The notes under the pieces: model-generated
The model's input: only the letters and a program-made list of their open reading frames with translations
Told to the model about the DNA's origin: nothing
Database searches by the model: none
Shown: positions 2,060-54,370 of the stretch, piece after piece
Position numbering within the stretch: the first letter of the stretch is position 1
How the letters are laid out: each line of letters starts with the position of its first letter
Origin: Escherichia phage ECBP2
Strand: one strand, 5' to 3'
Sequence record: NC_018859.1
DNA: 64,000 nt
Program-made: the position numbers and the translations under genes

Positions 2060-2551
2060 ATGGATAATGTCGCATTGCCACCGATACAACTGAGCTTAAG
2101 CCCAGAAGGGATGGAATTCATCATGAAGCATGAAGGTATGAGAACTCGTGCTTACCAAGATTCCGCAGGTATCTGGACGATATGTGTTGGGGCTACGCGC
2201 GATATGAATGGGTATCCAGTTAGACAGGGATTAACGTATTCTATAGAGGATTGTCTAGCTCTGCTAGATAGAGACACACAAGACTCTGTTCGTGCCACTC
2301 AGAAAAATATTAGGGTTCCTTTGCTAACCCACGAGTTTGATGCTCTCACCTCTTTCAATTTTAATGTAGGAGGAACAGCTCTATCAACTTCTAAGCTAAG
2401 GAAAGTGATCAACGGAGATGCTAAGGGTGATGTTTACTCAGAGTTCTTACGTTGGGATAAGATAACAGTCAGAGGTGTAAAACAACAGAGTCCGGGACTT
2501 CACAACCGAAGAGTTGCAGAAGCAGACCTATACACCATAGGTAAATATTAA
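2060..2551 (+). CDS. Lysozyme, glycoside hydrolase family 24 (T4/lambda-type muramidase)
   Basis: Motifs MKHEGMRTRAYQDSAGIWTICVG and FDALTSFNFNVGG are typical of phage GH24 lysozymes. SD is AAGGAGGTG. Confidence 0.85.
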   Translation: MDNVALPPIQLSLSPEGMEFIMKHEGMRTRAYQDSAGIWTICVGATRDMNGYPVRQGLTYSIEDCLALLDRDTQDSVRATQKNIRVPLLTHEFDALTSFNFNVGGTALSTSKLRKVINGDAKGDVYSEFLRWDKITVRGVKQQSPGLHNRRVAEADLYTIGKY

Positions 2552-2563
2552 TGGAGGTGCCTT

Positions 2564-3367
2564 TTGGCTATTGAAACTACAGCGGTAGTAACTACCGATT
2601 TAAATCCCCTGTACCCTCGTGACAGGGACTACATCTACGAAGGGGCGGCTCAACTCCGCCTCATTAAACAAGTGTTGATTAATACATTCCCTAATATCAC
2701 TGAACCAGTGAACCTGTCCTCTGAATCCTTTAAGGCTTTGTCAGAGAAGATCACATTTACTGGCGATGCAATGGATGTTGGTAATCTGATGATTAAGAAC
2801 CTAACTCCGGGTACAGGTGATAAAGATGCTGTAACCAAAGGTCAGATGGAAGCTTTCATGTTGAATTGGATGCAGAATAAACTTTATCGTATTGGTGCTT
2901 ACTATATCACTGAAGAAGATATCAACCCCGGTGATTCTAGCTCTCTCGGCTTTGGCTCTTGGGCTAAAGTTACTGGTGTTGTTATGGGTACTGGTGTTGT
3001 CAACCCCGATGGATCTGTTCCTAACGCCCAGCGTGTTGAGTTCCAAGCAGGCGGTACAGGTGGTCGTGTGTTCAATACAGTTCGTGCTGATAACATGCCT
3101 CTGACGACAATCAACGGTTCTAGTTTCCAAGTAAGTTCTTACTCTCACGCACACGGTATTACGATGGGTCGTGGTGATGCTAGTGGTCACAATAGCAACC
3201 CTAACTGGTATAGTCCGGGTGGTGGTTATACTCAGACAACTGATACAAATACTCACTCACACTCAATCTCTGGTTCTGTTAGTTTTGGTTATGATGATAT
3301 CTCTCGTCAGCCTATTAACACTTTACCACCGTTCCGAGCAGCACACATTTGGAGACGTATTAGCTAA
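2564..3367 (+). CDS. Tail fibre-like structural protein
   Basis: TTG start 5 nt after GGAGGTG. The G/S/T-rich beta-type sequence ends in LPPFRAAHIWRRIS, a fibre-like C-terminus. Located in the structural block. Confidence 0.5.
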   Translation: MAIETTAVVTTDLNPLYPRDRDYIYEGAAQLRLIKQVLINTFPNITEPVNLSSESFKALSEKITFTGDAMDVGNLMIKNLTPGTGDKDAVTKGQMEAFMLNWMQNKLYRIGAYYITEEDINPGDSSSLGFGSWAKVTGVVMGTGVVNPDGSVPNAQRVEFQAGGTGGRVFNTVRADNMPLTTINGSSFQVSSYSHAHGITMGRGDASGHNSNPNWYSPGGGYTQTTDTNTHSHSISGSVSFGYDDISRQPINTLPPFRAAHIWRRIS

Positions 3368-8472: not shown

Positions 8473-9267
8473 ATGACAATACGCATGGGAGTGTCCGAGC
8501 TAGACCCTATGGTCCAGCAAGCTTCTAAAAAGTACGGCATTCCTGCTGCTCTTATCCATGCAGTTATTCAGAGGGAGTCTAGTGGTAGACCTTCTGTTGC
8601 ATCAGGTACAGGGCCGGTAGGTTTAATGCAAATAAGTAAAGGGCTGGCTAAGGATTATGGCTACAAACTAGAAGATCGTCTAGACCCTGCTAAGAATATT
8701 GATATGGGTGCTAGGTATATCAGAGACAACTTAAAAGCTTTTGATGGTGATGTGAAGAAAGCTATGGTGGGATATTCTGAAGGGACTGGTGGAGCAAAAC
8801 AAATGTTCGCTGGTAAGAAAGGATTCACACCTCAGGCTTTGGATTCTATGAACAATAAGAACTTTCTTCCTTTCTATACAGCTAATGATGCTGCTGGTCA
8901 GGTTGCTAACCCGATGGGTGCTTTACAGTCAGTACAGCCAGTGAATCAGTTCTCTCCTGAATTGGTTACTAGAGAAGGTGCTGCTAATGCTCCTACTCAG
9001 GCTGAGATTGCTGCTGCTAAGACAGGTGCTCTTGGTGGCTCCCCTACTGAGTTCTATTCTGATGATGTAGAGGAAGCTGGAGAAGATCAGAAGCCACAAC
9101 AGAACTTTGGTAATGCTGCACTAGCTGCTGCTGCAATGTTAGCGGGTAAGGCTCCTAAGTCTCAAACAGTTCAGAGAGCACATGCACCAACTCAAGCAGG
9201 TTCTCAATACAGCCCACATACACAAGCCGTTCTTAGACGTTTGGCAAGTGTTGGTGTTATTAAATAA
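8473..9267 (+). CDS. Virion-associated lytic transglycosylase (SLT domain)
   Basis: ALIHAVIQRESSGRPSVASGTGPVGLMQIS contains the catalytic E-S and GLMQ motifs of soluble lytic transglycosylases. SD is TAAGGAGG. Confidence 0.8.
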   Translation: MTIRMGVSELDPMVQQASKKYGIPAALIHAVIQRESSGRPSVASGTGPVGLMQISKGLAKDYGYKLEDRLDPAKNIDMGARYIRDNLKAFDGDVKKAMVGYSEGTGGAKQMFAGKKGFTPQALDSMNNKNFLPFYTANDAAGQVANPMGALQSVQPVNQFSPELVTREGAANAPTQAEIAAAKTGALGGSPTEFYSDDVEEAGEDQKPQQNFGNAALAAAAMLAGKAPKSQTVQRAHAPTQAGSQYSPHTQAVLRRLASVGVIK

Positions 9268-9279
9268 TAAGGAGGACGT

Positions 9280-10329
9280 ATGTCTTTATTCGGGTCTGCT
9301 TCTAAGACTAAAACTACAGTGGCTCCATCTTCTCAGGTTGATGCTCTGTTAAAACAGATTGTAGCTAATGCTCAGAATATGAATAGCAATGATGCAGGTT
9401 TCATCTCTCAGCAATTGGCTGGTCTCAATCCTAATCAACAAGCTGCTCTTTCTAACCTAGCTAACTCCTCTACCCTGAACCAGTTGAGTGGTATGTATAC
9501 TCCTCGTACACAGCAGGGCTTAGATCAGATGAATACTCTGGCTCAGAAGTATTCTGCTCTAGGTAACAACTCTATTGGTGCTGGTGATGTTAATAACTTC
9601 AGTTCTGGACTTAATAACTCAGCTCTTGCTCAGTCAACTGGTAAAGCAGCTTCTAATGTATCTCTCGGTAATGGCTCTGACTCAGGTTCTCTCCGTCGTG
9701 CTTCTGCTCAAGGTGCTGCTTTGAACTCTGCTAATACTAATCTGTCTCGTAGCATCTCTGGCAAGAATTTGGGTGTTAATGCGCTCCAGTCTAATAACTC
9801 TTTCCAACAAGGATTGCTTAATGCTCAGACTGGATTAGCTGGACAGAATTTGAATCTTGGTGCTCAAGGTACACAAGCTGCTCAACAGGCTATTCAGAAC
9901 CAACTTACTGCTGGTAATCTACAGCAACAGCAAGATCAAGCACAAGCTGACCTTAATTGGCAGAACGCTATTGGTAGTCAACAATATGGGTGGAATCAAC
10001 TCAACAACCAACTGAATGTATTAAACTCAGTAAGTCCTATGGCTGGTTACACAATTACTAACAAAGGAGCCGCTCCTAATACAACTCAACAGCTTCTTGG
10101 AGCTGGTGTCACTGGTCTAGGTATTGCAGGTCGGTTAGGTGCATTCACTCCTAGTCAACAAACTACGAATGCTTGGAACTCCTACAATGCTTCTGGTGGT
10201 CAATCTGGTATGGCTGGTCCTATGATTGGTGGGTCTAACCTTTCCAACTCTTCTGGTCAGAGTAACTGGTTGTCTACAGCTGGGAGTAATATTTTAGGTG
10301 GTGTTCTCGGAGCCTTCGGGGCGAACTAA
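9280..10329 (+). CDS. Q/N/S/G-rich low-complexity virion protein
   Basis: SD TAAGGAGG. Starts MSLFG. Extreme Q/N/G/S/A bias. Paralogous in style to the next gene. Confidence 0.55.
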   Translation: MSLFGSASKTKTTVAPSSQVDALLKQIVANAQNMNSNDAGFISQQLAGLNPNQQAALSNLANSSTLNQLSGMYTPRTQQGLDQMNTLAQKYSALGNNSIGAGDVNNFSSGLNNSALAQSTGKAASNVSLGNGSDSGSLRRASAQGAALNSANTNLSRSISGKNLGVNALQSNNSFQQGLLNAQTGLAGQNLNLGAQGTQAAQQAIQNQLTAGNLQQQQDQAQADLNWQNAIGSQQYGWNQLNNQLNVLNSVSPMAGYTITNKGAAPNTTQQLLGAGVTGLGIAGRLGAFTPSQQTTNAWNSYNASGGQSGMAGPMIGGSNLSNSSGQSNWLSTAGSNILGGVLGAFGAN

Positions 10330-25627: not shown

Positions 25628-25939
25628 CTACTTCTCCACCACAAAGAGGTTAACTTCAATGAAAGTTTCGTATTGTGTTGACTCCTGCTTACGGGTGTAG
25701 TAGAAATGACGACCTTCTAATGCACCTCCGTACTGAGTGGCACATCTTTTAACCATCTCTTTTATCACATCTATAACTGATACGCCTTTCCACGGACGTA
25801 ACCCATGAGTAGGAATTTCTGCTGTGCAGGTTACTTGTGTATAACCTACATCTTGTAGAGGTGTCTCAAGAATCAGCTTTGCCCAAGCATCAAAATTAAG
25901 CTTGGGGTTATATTTAACTTCAGTTTTGATATCAATCAT
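25628..25939 (-). CDS. Hypothetical protein
   Basis: 103 aa. The start overlaps the stop of the polymerase 3' exon (TAATG). Confidence 0.5.
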   Translation of the reverse strand: MIDIKTEVKYNPKLNFDAWAKLILETPLQDVGYTQVTCTAEIPTHGLRPWKGVSVIDVIKEMVKRCATQYGGALEGRHFYYTRKQESTQYETFIEVNLFVVEK

Positions 25940-26091
25940 TAGTGAGTATGATTCCAGTTTAATCCAATCTTACAATCAGATGCAAGAGGACATTCCATCT
26001 TGAGATATTCCCCTGCTTTACGGACACACTCTTCAGTGAGAGTGCGCAGAATATTAACATCATCACGATGTACAGTGAACTGGCCTTCATC
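25939..26091 (-). CDS. DNA polymerase (family A) exon 2 / C-terminal fragment
   Basis: Reads DEGQFTVHRDDVNILRTLTEECVRKAGEYLKMECPLASDCKIGLNWNHTH*, which is the remainder of motif C (HDE) plus the conserved PolA C-terminus ending in H. Confidence 0.75.
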   Translation of the reverse strand, partial: DEGQFTVHRDDVNILRTLTEECVRKAGEYLKMECPLASDCKIGLNWNHTH

Positions 26092-26698
26092 CATTCAGTT
26101 ATTCCCAAATTACTTCGGGTGTCGGACTATATCATAACAGCATAGCTAATTTGCTGTTGTTGGCGCTTCGAGGGTTTCCCTGTTAACCCCCTACTCCCTT
26201 AGGATAGTCTCTACACTTTCCACTTCCGAATCCATCTACAACCGATTCCGAAGCTCACACCAAACTTCTCTGCAAGATGTACACCAGAGCATTCTGTTTC
26301 TAGCCAATAGAGCCTTGCAGCCTCTTGCCTATCTCCATTTCTTCCAGTGTTTGATTCTATTGCATGTTCTGAACCTTCAAGCATTTCTAAGTGCTCAAGA
26401 TTGGAACAAGCTCTATTCTTGCATTTGTGATTTATTTCATAACCGTCAGGAATAGAACCAAAAGATTCTTCCCAAACATGCCTGTGATACATGACCCATT
26501 TGCCATCTATTACTTTTCTGAAATAACCATTTTTATTAAGTTTGTGTGAGATAGGGATGATACACCCTGTTTCGGTTGTTTCCAAAACAAGAGTTTTCTT
26601 AGCCATATCATCTCCTAATAGCTTAGCTCGGTATTGCCCTCAACTTAATGGTAGGGTTTCACCGAGTTCACCAACTTTTACATGCACAATGAAAGTTT
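26092..26698 (-). mobile_element. Group I intron (607 nt) in DNA polymerase motif C, carrying an HNH homing endonuclease gene
   Basis: Exon 1 ends in U. Intron nt 12-19 (GUGCAUGU) pair with the last 8 exon nt (ACAUGCAU), giving a terminal U.G wobble (P1). Intron nt 6-11 (UUCAUU) pair with the exon 2 start GAUGAA (P10). The intron ends in G. Splicing restores VIDMH-DEGQF. Confidence 0.7.
26211..26606 (-). CDS. Intron-encoded HNH homing endonuclease
   Basis: HRHVWE...EINHKCKNRACSNLEHLE (HNH_3/I-HmuI-like) with a C-terminal HTH-like segment. Own SD is AGGAGA. Confidence 0.8.
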   Translation of the reverse strand: MAKKTLVLETTETGCIIPISHKLNKNGYFRKVIDGKWVMYHRHVWEESFGSIPDGYEINHKCKNRACSNLEHLEMLEGSEHAIESNTGRNGDRQEAARLYWLETECSGVHLAEKFGVSFGIGCRWIRKWKV

Positions 26699-28393
26699 AT
26701 GCATGTCGATAACCTTCGCACAACGAACACCATCACGCTCAATCCATTTATTGAGGAATAGCATTGCATACTTCATAACAATCGCCCCAGCGCTCTGTAA
26801 GAGCGTATTTAAGGCTTTATGGACCATAACCTTTCCAGTTGCATCTCTTCTCATTGTAATACGACGTCCATCCACACCGTAGATGTATCCACTTTGTGCT
26901 TTCTCGGTCATACGTTCAATAAGGATTGCAATACAAGGATTCTCTGCTAAGAATCTTGCTCTCATAATAGCCCCTTCGTCAGAGCCACCACCTACGATAC
27001 TTCCTAGTTTAGCGTCACCTGCCCCATAGTTAAAGGCATATATAAACGTCTTAGCGTTATCGCGAGTAGGAAGACCAGCAAGTTTTTGGTTATGTGAGTG
27101 AATATCTCCTTCTAAAAGAATATCTCTGTACATAACAGCAGAAGCTAGACCACGTTCAGCTTCTCGTTTCTTAGCTGGGTTGTTTTCTCGCTCTGCTTCA
27201 GCGAGCATCTCACGACATTCTTTAATAAGGTAGTGAGCTAGCATCCTCAGCTCAAGACCAGAGCCATCGTAACCTAAGAAGATTTCACGACCAGCAGGTA
27301 CATAGAACTTATAGGCACCTACAGGTTTGTCTTTCTTGCCCGGTTTTCCCACTTCGTAGATAATGTTAGTACCTTTTCGTACGTAACACCCATCAGGGAT
27401 ATGGTTGGTAATGATGAAAGGATAGTTATGACTATCGTCTGAGGAATAGTCAGATTGAAAAAGACTGCGGCACTCGTGACCAAACAAACCGCGAGAAGGA
27501 ATATTAACAACAATACGGTGTTTAAAACGAAATGTCGGAGTAGCGCAGCTATTAGCTTCGGCGGACAACTTACCATCTTCTCGTTCCTTGTCTATAAGAC
27601 CATTAATCAAGCCAAGCCTGTGAGCCGCTACAACACGTCTCTTAAGCAAACCTCCCACACCCCCTAGCTCACCCCCAAGACCTTCTTCAAGCGTCTCCTC
27701 GAGGTTTGTAGGAGCTGTAGGCCACTTGTTTGACATGGCTAAAGCTTTCTTAATTTCATCAAAGGTTACAGGCTTCTTCCTGTTCGGATTCAAGCCTAAA
27801 CCACTGACGTAGGCTTTCATGTAGTTGACAGTGTGATAACGGAAGTGTTTATCCAAGAACCGACGAATGTCAGCATCAATCATCTCAGCTGTCTGTTTTT
27901 CTTTAGCGTTTCCTCGCATCCAAGCAGAATACCAAGCAGCATATGTGCCATACTTCTTCATCGCTTTACGGATTTCGTAAGTATTCCAAGGTTTCTTGGA
28001 TGTGTTCCACTCTGGAGGAATGAAGCCTTCATCCATCAAGGCTTCTTTGATACGTGCATCTTTCGATGGGTCGAAGTCTACATACTCAACGCAAGTAAAC
28101 GCCCCACCGATATCTTCTCTTTTAAGACCAACTCTGTCACAATAAAGCTGAGGCCACTTCTGTAAAGCACCTGACTTCTTAAAAGGTTTCGAATAAGTTG
28201 AACCATCCACCCGCATTTTGGGGAGGAGAGGAATCAGTTCTTTATCAATATTGACAATAATCTCTTTGAGAAGGTGAACAAACCACCGAGCGTTTCTTCT
28301 GTGGAAGTTGACGCCATGCTTCGCCTGCTTTGAGATTATATCAGCGACTGTCATCTCCGTTATGAAAGGTAACTTATCAGGGTTATCCATCAC
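26699..28393 (-). CDS. DNA polymerase (family A, T7-like) exon 1: polymerase domain without 3'-5' exonuclease
   Basis: Motif A YDGSGLELRMLAH and motif B DNAKTFIYAFNYGAG. The ORF reads through only 6 codons past ...VIDMH. SD AAGGAG. Confidence 0.85.
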
Positions 28394-54294: not shown

Positions 54295-54370
54295 TGGTGC
54301 ACCCTACAGGATTCGAACCTGTAACCAACGACTTAGAAGGTCGCTGCTCTATCCATTGAGCTAAGGGTGC
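54295..54370 (-). tRNA. tRNA-Arg(UCU): tRNA-Arg, anticodon UCU, CCA encoded
   Basis: Minus strand folds as a 76 nt cloverleaf: GCACCCT TA GCTC AATGGATA GAGC A GCGAC CTTCTAA GTCGT TGGTT ACAGG TTCGAAT CCTGT AGGGTGC ACCA. Confidence 0.9.

Follow-up and report, generated by a model that had tools for sequence, protein, structure and literature searches.

What separates the two pieces of the DNA polymerase gene of Escherichia phage ECBP2? The question is raised by one locus of sequence record NC_018859.1, of which a stretch of 64,000 nucleotides (nt) was analyzed as a whole; this stretch is the window to which all positions below refer. There, the reading frame of a family A DNA polymerase ends in the middle of the catalytic motif C, and 607 nt lie between that point and the codons that complete it. 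We interpret the insert as a group I intron of the IA2 type that is mobile and self-splicing, from the polymerase-intron lineage first described in the T7-like phages PhiI and W31, and on comparative sequence grounds we give this reading a probability of roughly 0.9. The first-pass annotation, made from the letters of this DNA, had proposed that motif C is split by a group I intron carrying an HNH endonuclease gene. That proposal is now supported by a full-length, though sub-threshold, match to Rfam family RF00028, covariation, homology to inserts of T7-like phages, likeness of the encoded protein to the endonuclease I-TslI, and restoration of PolA when the exons are joined.

Interruption of the polymerase gene at motif C

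All genes of the polymerase locus are carried by the minus strand, and the long open reading frame (ORF) belongs to the family A DNA polymerases (Pfam DNA_pol_A, 1e-13). After ...AKVIDMH it continues for just the six codons announced by the first-pass annotation (KLSLCM) before an in-frame UAA stop at 26678. The missing end of PolA, DEGQFTVHRDD...NWNHTH*, was likewise found where it had been placed, 607 nt downstream on the same strand, from 26091. The polymerase start needed a small revision within a correctly located gene: ATG 28390 is likelier than the GTG at 28393, as it agrees with the annotated starts in relatives and has better Shine-Dalgarno (SD) spacing. The features of the locus are as follows.

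26699..28390, minus strand: PolA exon 1, 564 codons, ending ...AKVIDMH at the His of the motif C "HDE"; identified by its ORF, the DNA_pol_A match and collinearity with Bas88
26092..26698, minus strand: probable group I intron, IA2-type, 607 nt, with 5' end AAAC and terminal G at 26092
26211..26606, minus strand: predicted HNH homing-endonuclease gene, 131 amino acids (aa), in the P6a loop; SD AGGAG at 26616-26612
25939..26091, minus strand: PolA exon 2, DEGQF...NWNHTH*, 50 codons plus stop; first six nt GAUGAA, which pair in P10

Comparison with intron-less relatives, a check that had been suggested, fixed the boundaries unambiguously. The uninterrupted Bas88 polymerase gene reads ATCGACATGCAT|GATGAAGG at the junction (VIDMH|DEGQF), the intron-less relatives have ...ATGCAT|GATGAA... 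at the site, and the Bas88/UKE3-type allele around it is ...ATGCATGATGAA...; ...GTTATTGACATGCATGATGAAGGA.... Because no other placement of a 607-nt deletion gives the Bas88 junction, the insert is exactly 26698..26092. Its limits have the expected bases, a U closing exon 1 at 26699 and a G closing the intron at 26092. The joined exons encode a PolA of 614 aa that aligns without gaps to that of Bas88 at 96% identity, and the break falls between the His and the Asp-Glu of motif C, which corresponds to position 881 of E. coli Pol I.

Two further observations concern the polymerase itself. The 614-aa kuravirus PolA (28390-25939) aligns to the polymerase domain of T7 gp5 only, from about residue 283, and the exonuclease domains are products of separate genes in phages of this group (PMC9965538). 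A cluster of ECBP2-specific substitutions lies in exon 2 at 26053-26041, 38-50 nt past the splice site, where ECBP2 has AATATTCTGCGC and all relatives have AACAAACTTCGY, changing N-K-L to N-I-L.

Homologues of the insert

A blastn search with the insert alone found full-length homologues in DNA polymerase genes, at 98% coverage and about 66% identity (E down to 1e-40). They occur in the T7-like phages 13a, K1F, Bas102-104, Klebsiella VSG32 and Yersinia and Salmonella phages, in Aeromonas phage PT2, and in the 110-kb Vibrio phages Vp_R1 and SJSY21. The polymerase coding sequence (CDS) is annotated as a two-piece join in 13a, K1F, Bas102 and Bas104. Together with contigs of IMG/VR retrieved by the pattern TAGAGACTATCCNNNNGGAGTAGG, these GenBank phages gave 35 copies, every one of which is flanked by CAT|GAY-GAR. 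After removal of the ORF, 29 nonredundant sequences were aligned and the conventional group I structure was written on the alignment; the comparative counts below refer to these 29.

Guide sequence and exon pairings

The first 60 nt of the insert contain a sequence that can read both exons at once, as the first-pass annotation had seen by eye; both pairings were recovered base for base.

26680..26693, minus strand: predicted internal guide sequence; P10 strand UUCAUU at 26693-26688, P1 strand GUGCAUGU at 26687-26680

In P1, intron nt 12-19 (GUGCAUGU, 26687-26680) pair over 8 base pairs (bp) with the last eight nt of exon 1 (ACAUGCAU, 26706-26699), so that U 26699 at the splice site faces G 26687 in the terminal wobble; this U.G is present in 29/29 homologues. 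In P10, intron nt 6-11 (UUCAUU, 26693-26688) form 6 bp with the GAUGAA that opens exon 2. When the first 60 nt of the intron were shuffled 200,000 times, an 8-bp P1 and a 6-bp P10 directly beside it turned up together at a frequency of 1.5e-5.

Both pairings change together with the exons. At exon position -6 the P1 pair is G-C with the GUGCAU exon of T7-like phages and A-U with the AUGCAU exon of kuraviruses and Vp_R1 (22 and 6 homologues). The first P10 pair is U-A with GAUGAA (14 homologues) and C-G with GAUGAG (7); it thus tracks a synonymous codon position of exon 2.

The ribozyme core

The first-pass annotation had made the intron reading turn on a P3-P9 core detectable by a covariance model. 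Such a scan returned RF00028 at 26708..26103 over the whole model (positions 1-253; E = 1.1e-4, 27.2 bits, short of the gathering score), and the helices of this match are those that we derived independently. Our structure includes a P3/P7 pseudoknot. The elements assigned are listed in transcript order.

26620..26675, minus strand: 5' half of the core (P3 5', P4, P5, P4', P6 5', P6a 5')
26675-26669, minus strand: P3 5' strand, GUUGGUG
26666-26661, minus strand: P4, CUCGGU
26656-26637, minus strand: P5, with a kuravirus-specific extension
26632-26627, minus strand: P4', ACCGAG
26626-26624, minus strand: P6 5' strand, CUA
26622-26620, minus strand: P6a 5' strand, GCU
26104..26209, minus strand: 3' half of the core (P7 to P9)
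26209-26205, minus strand: P7 5' strand, GACUA
26204-26195, minus strand: P7.1, UCC/GGA (UCC-UAAG-GGA)
26194-26192, minus strand: GUA linker
26191-26170, minus strand: P7.2, GGGGGUU/AACCCUC, 7 bp, followed by GAAG
26165-26159, minus strand: P3', CGCCAAC
26158-26136, minus strand: P8
26129-26125, minus strand: P7', UAGUC
26119-26104, minus strand: P9, CCCGAA-GUAA-UUUGGG, with a GNRA loop

Comparison across the 29 sequences carries this structure. Of the alignment cells, 94.2% form the proposed pairs, a share that drops to 36-45% once the 3' partners are displaced by one to three columns (slid controls), and at 26 pairs both bases have changed. For covariation the structure scores 0.294 and the slid controls 0.03-0.09, and none of 500 shuffles reached the observed values. 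Compensatory changes affect six of the seven pairs of P3, where the GUUGG/CCAAC of ECBP2 is replaced elsewhere by UCUGG/CCAGA, CUAGG/CCUAG, CCCCG/CGGGG or CUCAU/GUGAG, as well as five of seven pairs in P8 and four of six in P9; P7.2 covaries in the T7-like copies. An unconstrained minimum free energy (MFE) fold of the ORF-deleted ECBP2 intron (-67.8 kcal/mol, z about -3.6) recovers P1, P3, P4, P5, P7.2, P8 and P9.

Assignment to IA2 follows the criterion that P7.1 and P7.2 be joined by G-U-A (PMC3428280), and ECBP2 has P7.1-GUA-P7.2 between P7 and P3' (26204-26170). The same P7-P7.1-GUA signature, TAGAGACTATCC-N4-GGAGTAGG together with GATATAGTCCG, was seen with different flanks in six IMG/VR contigs (L028, L031, L033, L046, L038 and L044); these probably carry introns of related IA2 type within different genes.

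The HNH gene

The 131-aa ORF inside the insert matches Pfam HNH_3 (2.1e-13, 50.1 bits against a cutoff of 24.8) and PHROG 6254, an HNH endonuclease family (8.5e-43). Residues H60, N64/N69, H72, H81, C62 and C67 are invariant among seven diverse homologues. A PDB sequence search with the protein found no relative, and a single-sequence AlphaFold model was unusable (pLDDT, the predicted local distance difference test score, 36).

The first-pass annotation had given this ORF its own SD and left about 210 nt for the ribozyme. The SD and 211 non-ORF nt were confirmed; the core is not confined to them, since the end of the ORF is shared. Its last codons and UAG stop (UGG AAA GUG UAG; about 7 nt, 26217-26211) are also the 3' strands of P6a and P6, and P7 (GACUA) starts one base after the stop codon. 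The ORF-less copies on contigs L029 and L042 keep GAAGGUGUAG at the position of the ORF end; therefore, these bases belong to the ribozyme. A hairpin that would sequester the SD and start codon of the HNH gene (AGCUAU/AUGGCU) can be drawn in several lineages, with unremarkable folding z-scores of -0.5 to -1.7, and we make no claim for it.

L029 and L042 each carry a 225-nt ORF-less copy, and a 419-nt copy on L037 falls in the same ORF-less or ORF-truncated set; all three sit at the His|Asp-Glu site. They suggest that the endonuclease gene can be lost while the ribozyme persists.

Distribution and transfer

Over this region ECBP2 shares 95% identity with vB_EcoP_SU7 and 94% with a number of phiEco32-like phages from which the approximately 607 nt are missing. 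Within phiEco32-like phages the intron is sporadic, occurring in 9 records (7 phages) among 97 matching records, and it comes in two variants whose ribozyme parts are near-identical and whose HNH proteins are only 80% identical. SU7, with the intron, and UKE3, without it, differ at 13 of 1,845 exon positions (99.3% identity), all of them outside the 600 nt that precede the site. This pair and the sporadic pattern indicate recent gain or precise loss, as for a homing element, and fall short of proving homing.

The polymerase gene of ECBP2 is itself a mosaic, Bas88-like upstream of about 27515 and SU7-like from about 27461 to about 25865. Recombination breakpoints were placed at 27515-27461 and about 25865-25826, with Bas88 matching outside them and SU7, IME267, MLP3 and UKE3 matching between. 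We considered this patch as a co-conversion tract and rejected it: the intron-less IME267, MLP3 and UKE3 carry the same flank with about 2% mismatch. As intron-less phages share the SU7-type flank, the mosaicism is ordinary and unrelated to the intron, and Bas88 is the outlier.

Over larger distances, the relationships of the element depart from those of its hosts, as identities to ECBP2 show.

13a (T7-like): PolA 29%, HNH protein 61%
Vibrio phage Vp_R1: PolA 49%, HNH protein 54%

At 90% identity the 13a HNH protein clusters with AAV53690.1, named "I-TslI [Phage PhiI]", and the ECBP2 protein is 63% identical to I-TslI. The HNH protein of ECBP2 is thus nearer to I-TslI than to that of Vp_R1, whereas its PolA is nearer to that of Vp_R1. 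Since the host polymerases are only 29% identical despite the homology of their introns, the intron has moved between phage families. We conclude that the lineage crossed at least three of them through the invariant His|Asp-Glu codons: PhiI/W31-type introns occupy the identical catalytic site in Autographiviridae, Gordonclarkvirinae and Vibrio Grimontviridae. The polymerases of these groups now share 29-49% identity, and in each group the intron has a retuned P1/P10 guide. This is a natural example of homing elements crossing phage families through invariant active-site codons.

There is also a practical consequence. In the records of ECBP2, SU7, PAS59, PE006, FH3 and others, the locus appears as two fragments called "DNA polymerase", accompanied by an endonuclease or by hypothetical proteins; for this set of phiEco32-like genomes the annotation should be corrected to a polymerase encoded as a two-exon join. 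Elsewhere in the window, a lone tRNA-Arg gene (anticodon TCT) lies at 54295-54370 on the minus strand (Rfam tRNA, 73.8 bits).

Alternative readings

Several observations weigh against the reading as a self-splicing intron. The RF00028 score of ECBP2 does not reach the gathering score of 50. ECBP2 lacks P2, a helix that IA2 introns usually have, as J1/3 between P1 and P3 consists of AAAA only. P5, with its 9-nt extension, and P7.2 are remodeled relative to T7-like copies and, being constant among kuravirus copies, lie beyond covariation testing; P7 and P7.1 are invariant and hence uninformative in this respect. An in-frame AUG (26094) forms the last three intron nt in all seven kuravirus copies, which makes separate translation of the second polymerase piece formally possible. 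Finally, catalytic splicing and endonuclease activity in ECBP2 are what we infer from sequence. Self-splicing of the PhiI/W31 introns is reported by Bonocora and Shub 2004 (J Bacteriol 186:8153), as cited in PMC3428280, and our connection to those introns was made by way of citing papers and I-TslI.

The low score is best judged beside those of other family members, in RF00028 bits.

ECBP2: 27.2, the lowest of the members tested
Vp_R1: 34.9
K1F (annotated intron): 35.7
13a (annotated intron): 37.9
L029 (ORF-less, 225 nt, same site): 47.9
L042 (ORF-less, 225 nt, same site): 61.2, above the gathering score

Because annotated introns also score low and ORF-less copies score higher, the shortfall tracks the 397-nt ORF insertion and probably reflects it rather than a missing core.

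Of the competing explanations, the one that survives best, itself very unlikely, is a decayed intron. It would descend from the PhiI/W31 lineage and have lost autocatalysis, so that splicing requires a protein cofactor or the polymerase gene is defective. The missing P2, the differences of P7.2 and P5 from the T7-like copies, and the lowest RF00028 score of those tested are all features that decay could produce. Yet P1, P3, P4, P6, P7, P8, P9, the U.G pair, the terminal G and the J8/7-P7 element (AUGAUAUAGUC) are all intact, and it is this completeness of the core that makes decay improbable. The same ribozyme sequence has, moreover, been kept in the two kuravirus variants while their ORFs diverged, and ECBP2 is an isolated lytic phage that must replicate with this polymerase. 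Lack of P2 is no impediment in the related IA2 intron of Pf-WMP3, which also has none and yet self-splices (PMC3428280).

We give still less credence to a polymerase that is split at the protein level. Here the insert would be a free-standing endonuclease cassette that is never spliced, and fragments of 570 aa and 51 aa, the latter started at AUG 26094, would assemble. Split phage polymerases do exist in other families, such as the T4-related gp43 variants cited in PMC3073962. In the SU7 record the parts are annotated as individual CDSs, together with a ribosome binding site, and the AUG directly before exon 2, already noticed in the first-pass annotation, is present in 7/7 kuravirus copies. 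Its conservation ends there, however: in the wider family the intron closes with AAAG, UAAG, AUAG or AUUG, and AUG is absent from most T7-like copies. The putative SD for the second fragment is weak (GGGAA) and lies inside the 3' strand of P9, and the break would fall inside a single catalytic motif, between His and Asp-Glu. Compensatory changes that maintain a ribozyme core would have no purpose in an unspliced cassette, and the ORF-less 225-nt copies at the same site (L029 and L042) make sense only for a splicing element.

An intein or other protein-level element, or functionless chance complementarity, accounts for nothing beyond the interrupted reading frame and has next to no probability, as the in-frame stop after six codons with a separate ORF in another arrangement excludes an intein, and the frequency of about 1.5e-5 for P1 with an adjacent P10, the homology and the covariation speak against chance.

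If the insert is a self-splicing intron, the kuravirus AUG might still act as a fail-safe, whereby unspliced or mis-spliced RNA yields a 51-aa Asp-Glu fragment that complements the truncated polymerase in trans. This would make carriage of the intron nearly cost-free; we regard it as a long shot, far less well supported than the transfer of the lineage across phage families.

Proposed splicing and homing

In the mechanism that we propose for the group I intron, the polymerase pre-mRNA would be transcribed through the insert, and the guide sequence would pair with both exons: with the last eight nt of exon 1, so that the U.G of P1 marks the point of cleavage, and with the opening six nt of exon 2. 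The P3-P9 core would bind free guanosine, which would attack the 5' splice site. The freed 3'-OH of exon 1 would then attack after the terminal G, joining ...GAC AUG CAU to GAU GAA.... The predicted ligated junction, ...GACAUGCAU-GAUGAAGG..., would leave a single mRNA encoding the 614-aa PolA, its His-Asp-Glu motif C uninterrupted; unspliced RNA would give a truncated protein, since the frame meets a stop after six intron codons.

Translation of the HNH gene, which lies in the P6a loop, would start from the gene's own SD. Judging by I-TslI, I-HmuI and I-PfoP3I, the HNH protein may nick or cut intron-less polymerase alleles of coinfecting relatives, whose repair would copy the intron in. As the target consists of near-invariant catalytic codons, the same intron could become established in polymerases of 29% identity, its guide retuned to each exon.

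Relationship to known introns

The ECBP2 intron is a member of a known lineage rather than a new kind of element, and it involves no new mechanism. What is apparently undescribed is its presence in kuraviruses: no description of this intron was found in the literature on Kuravirus, Gordonclarkvirinae, phiEco32, SU7 and ECBP2.

T4 td and nrdB are IA2 phage introns with homing-endonuclease ORFs looped out of P6a, as in ECBP2. They differ in their host genes, their GIY-YIG endonucleases, the presence of P2 and the lack of sequence homology.

Closer in host gene are the introns of SPO1, SP82, phiE and Bastille (I-HmuI, I-HmuII and I-BasI) and of the cyanophage Pf-WMP3 (I-PfoP3I), which like that of ECBP2 are of the IA2 type, lie in family A polymerases and encode HNH (nicking) endonucleases. 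Their insertion site is a different one, 674-676 in E. coli numbering, within the fingers subdomain, and blastn found no nucleotide homology between the ECBP2 intron and those of the SPO1 type, Bastille or Pf-WMP3. The SPO1 ORF is located in P8 (PMC3073962), unlike the P6a position in ECBP2, whereas that of the P2-less Pf-WMP3 intron starts in P6a (PMC3428280).

A second polymerase intron exists in kuraviruses themselves, in the same gene and phage group as that of ECBP2. It likewise belongs to group I (RF00028, 48.1 bits) and contains an endonuclease ORF, but it occupies the motif B site (...AKTFIYAFN|YGAG...) and encodes a different endonuclease.

2211-2994 in KBNP1711: motif B intron
2410-3192 in Bas89: motif B intron, CDS annotated as a join

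ECBP2 PolA is uninterrupted at this site (codon 454/455, about 27030). The T7-like IMG/VR contig L042 has two ORF-less group I introns in one polymerase gene, at 8689-8917 and 9330-9587 (69.1 and 61.2 bits), at the motif B and motif C sites, that is, both sites used in kuraviruses.

The nearest relatives remain the PhiI/W31 introns, described in PMC3428280 as IA2 introns with an HNH ORF in P6a at site 881 of E. coli Pol I; the insert of K1F has been called a putative group I intron (PMC4925675). What sets ECBP2 apart is its host, a phiEco32-like podovirus of the Gordonclarkvirinae instead of an autographivirus, with a PolA only 29% identical; its P1 guide, GUGCAUGU in place of GUGCAC; and its 9-nt P5 extension, remodeled P7.2 and in-frame AUG before exon 2. 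What it shares with them is the site after the motif C His, the IA2-type fold with P7.1-GUA-P7.2, and a 131-aa HNH ORF in P6a.

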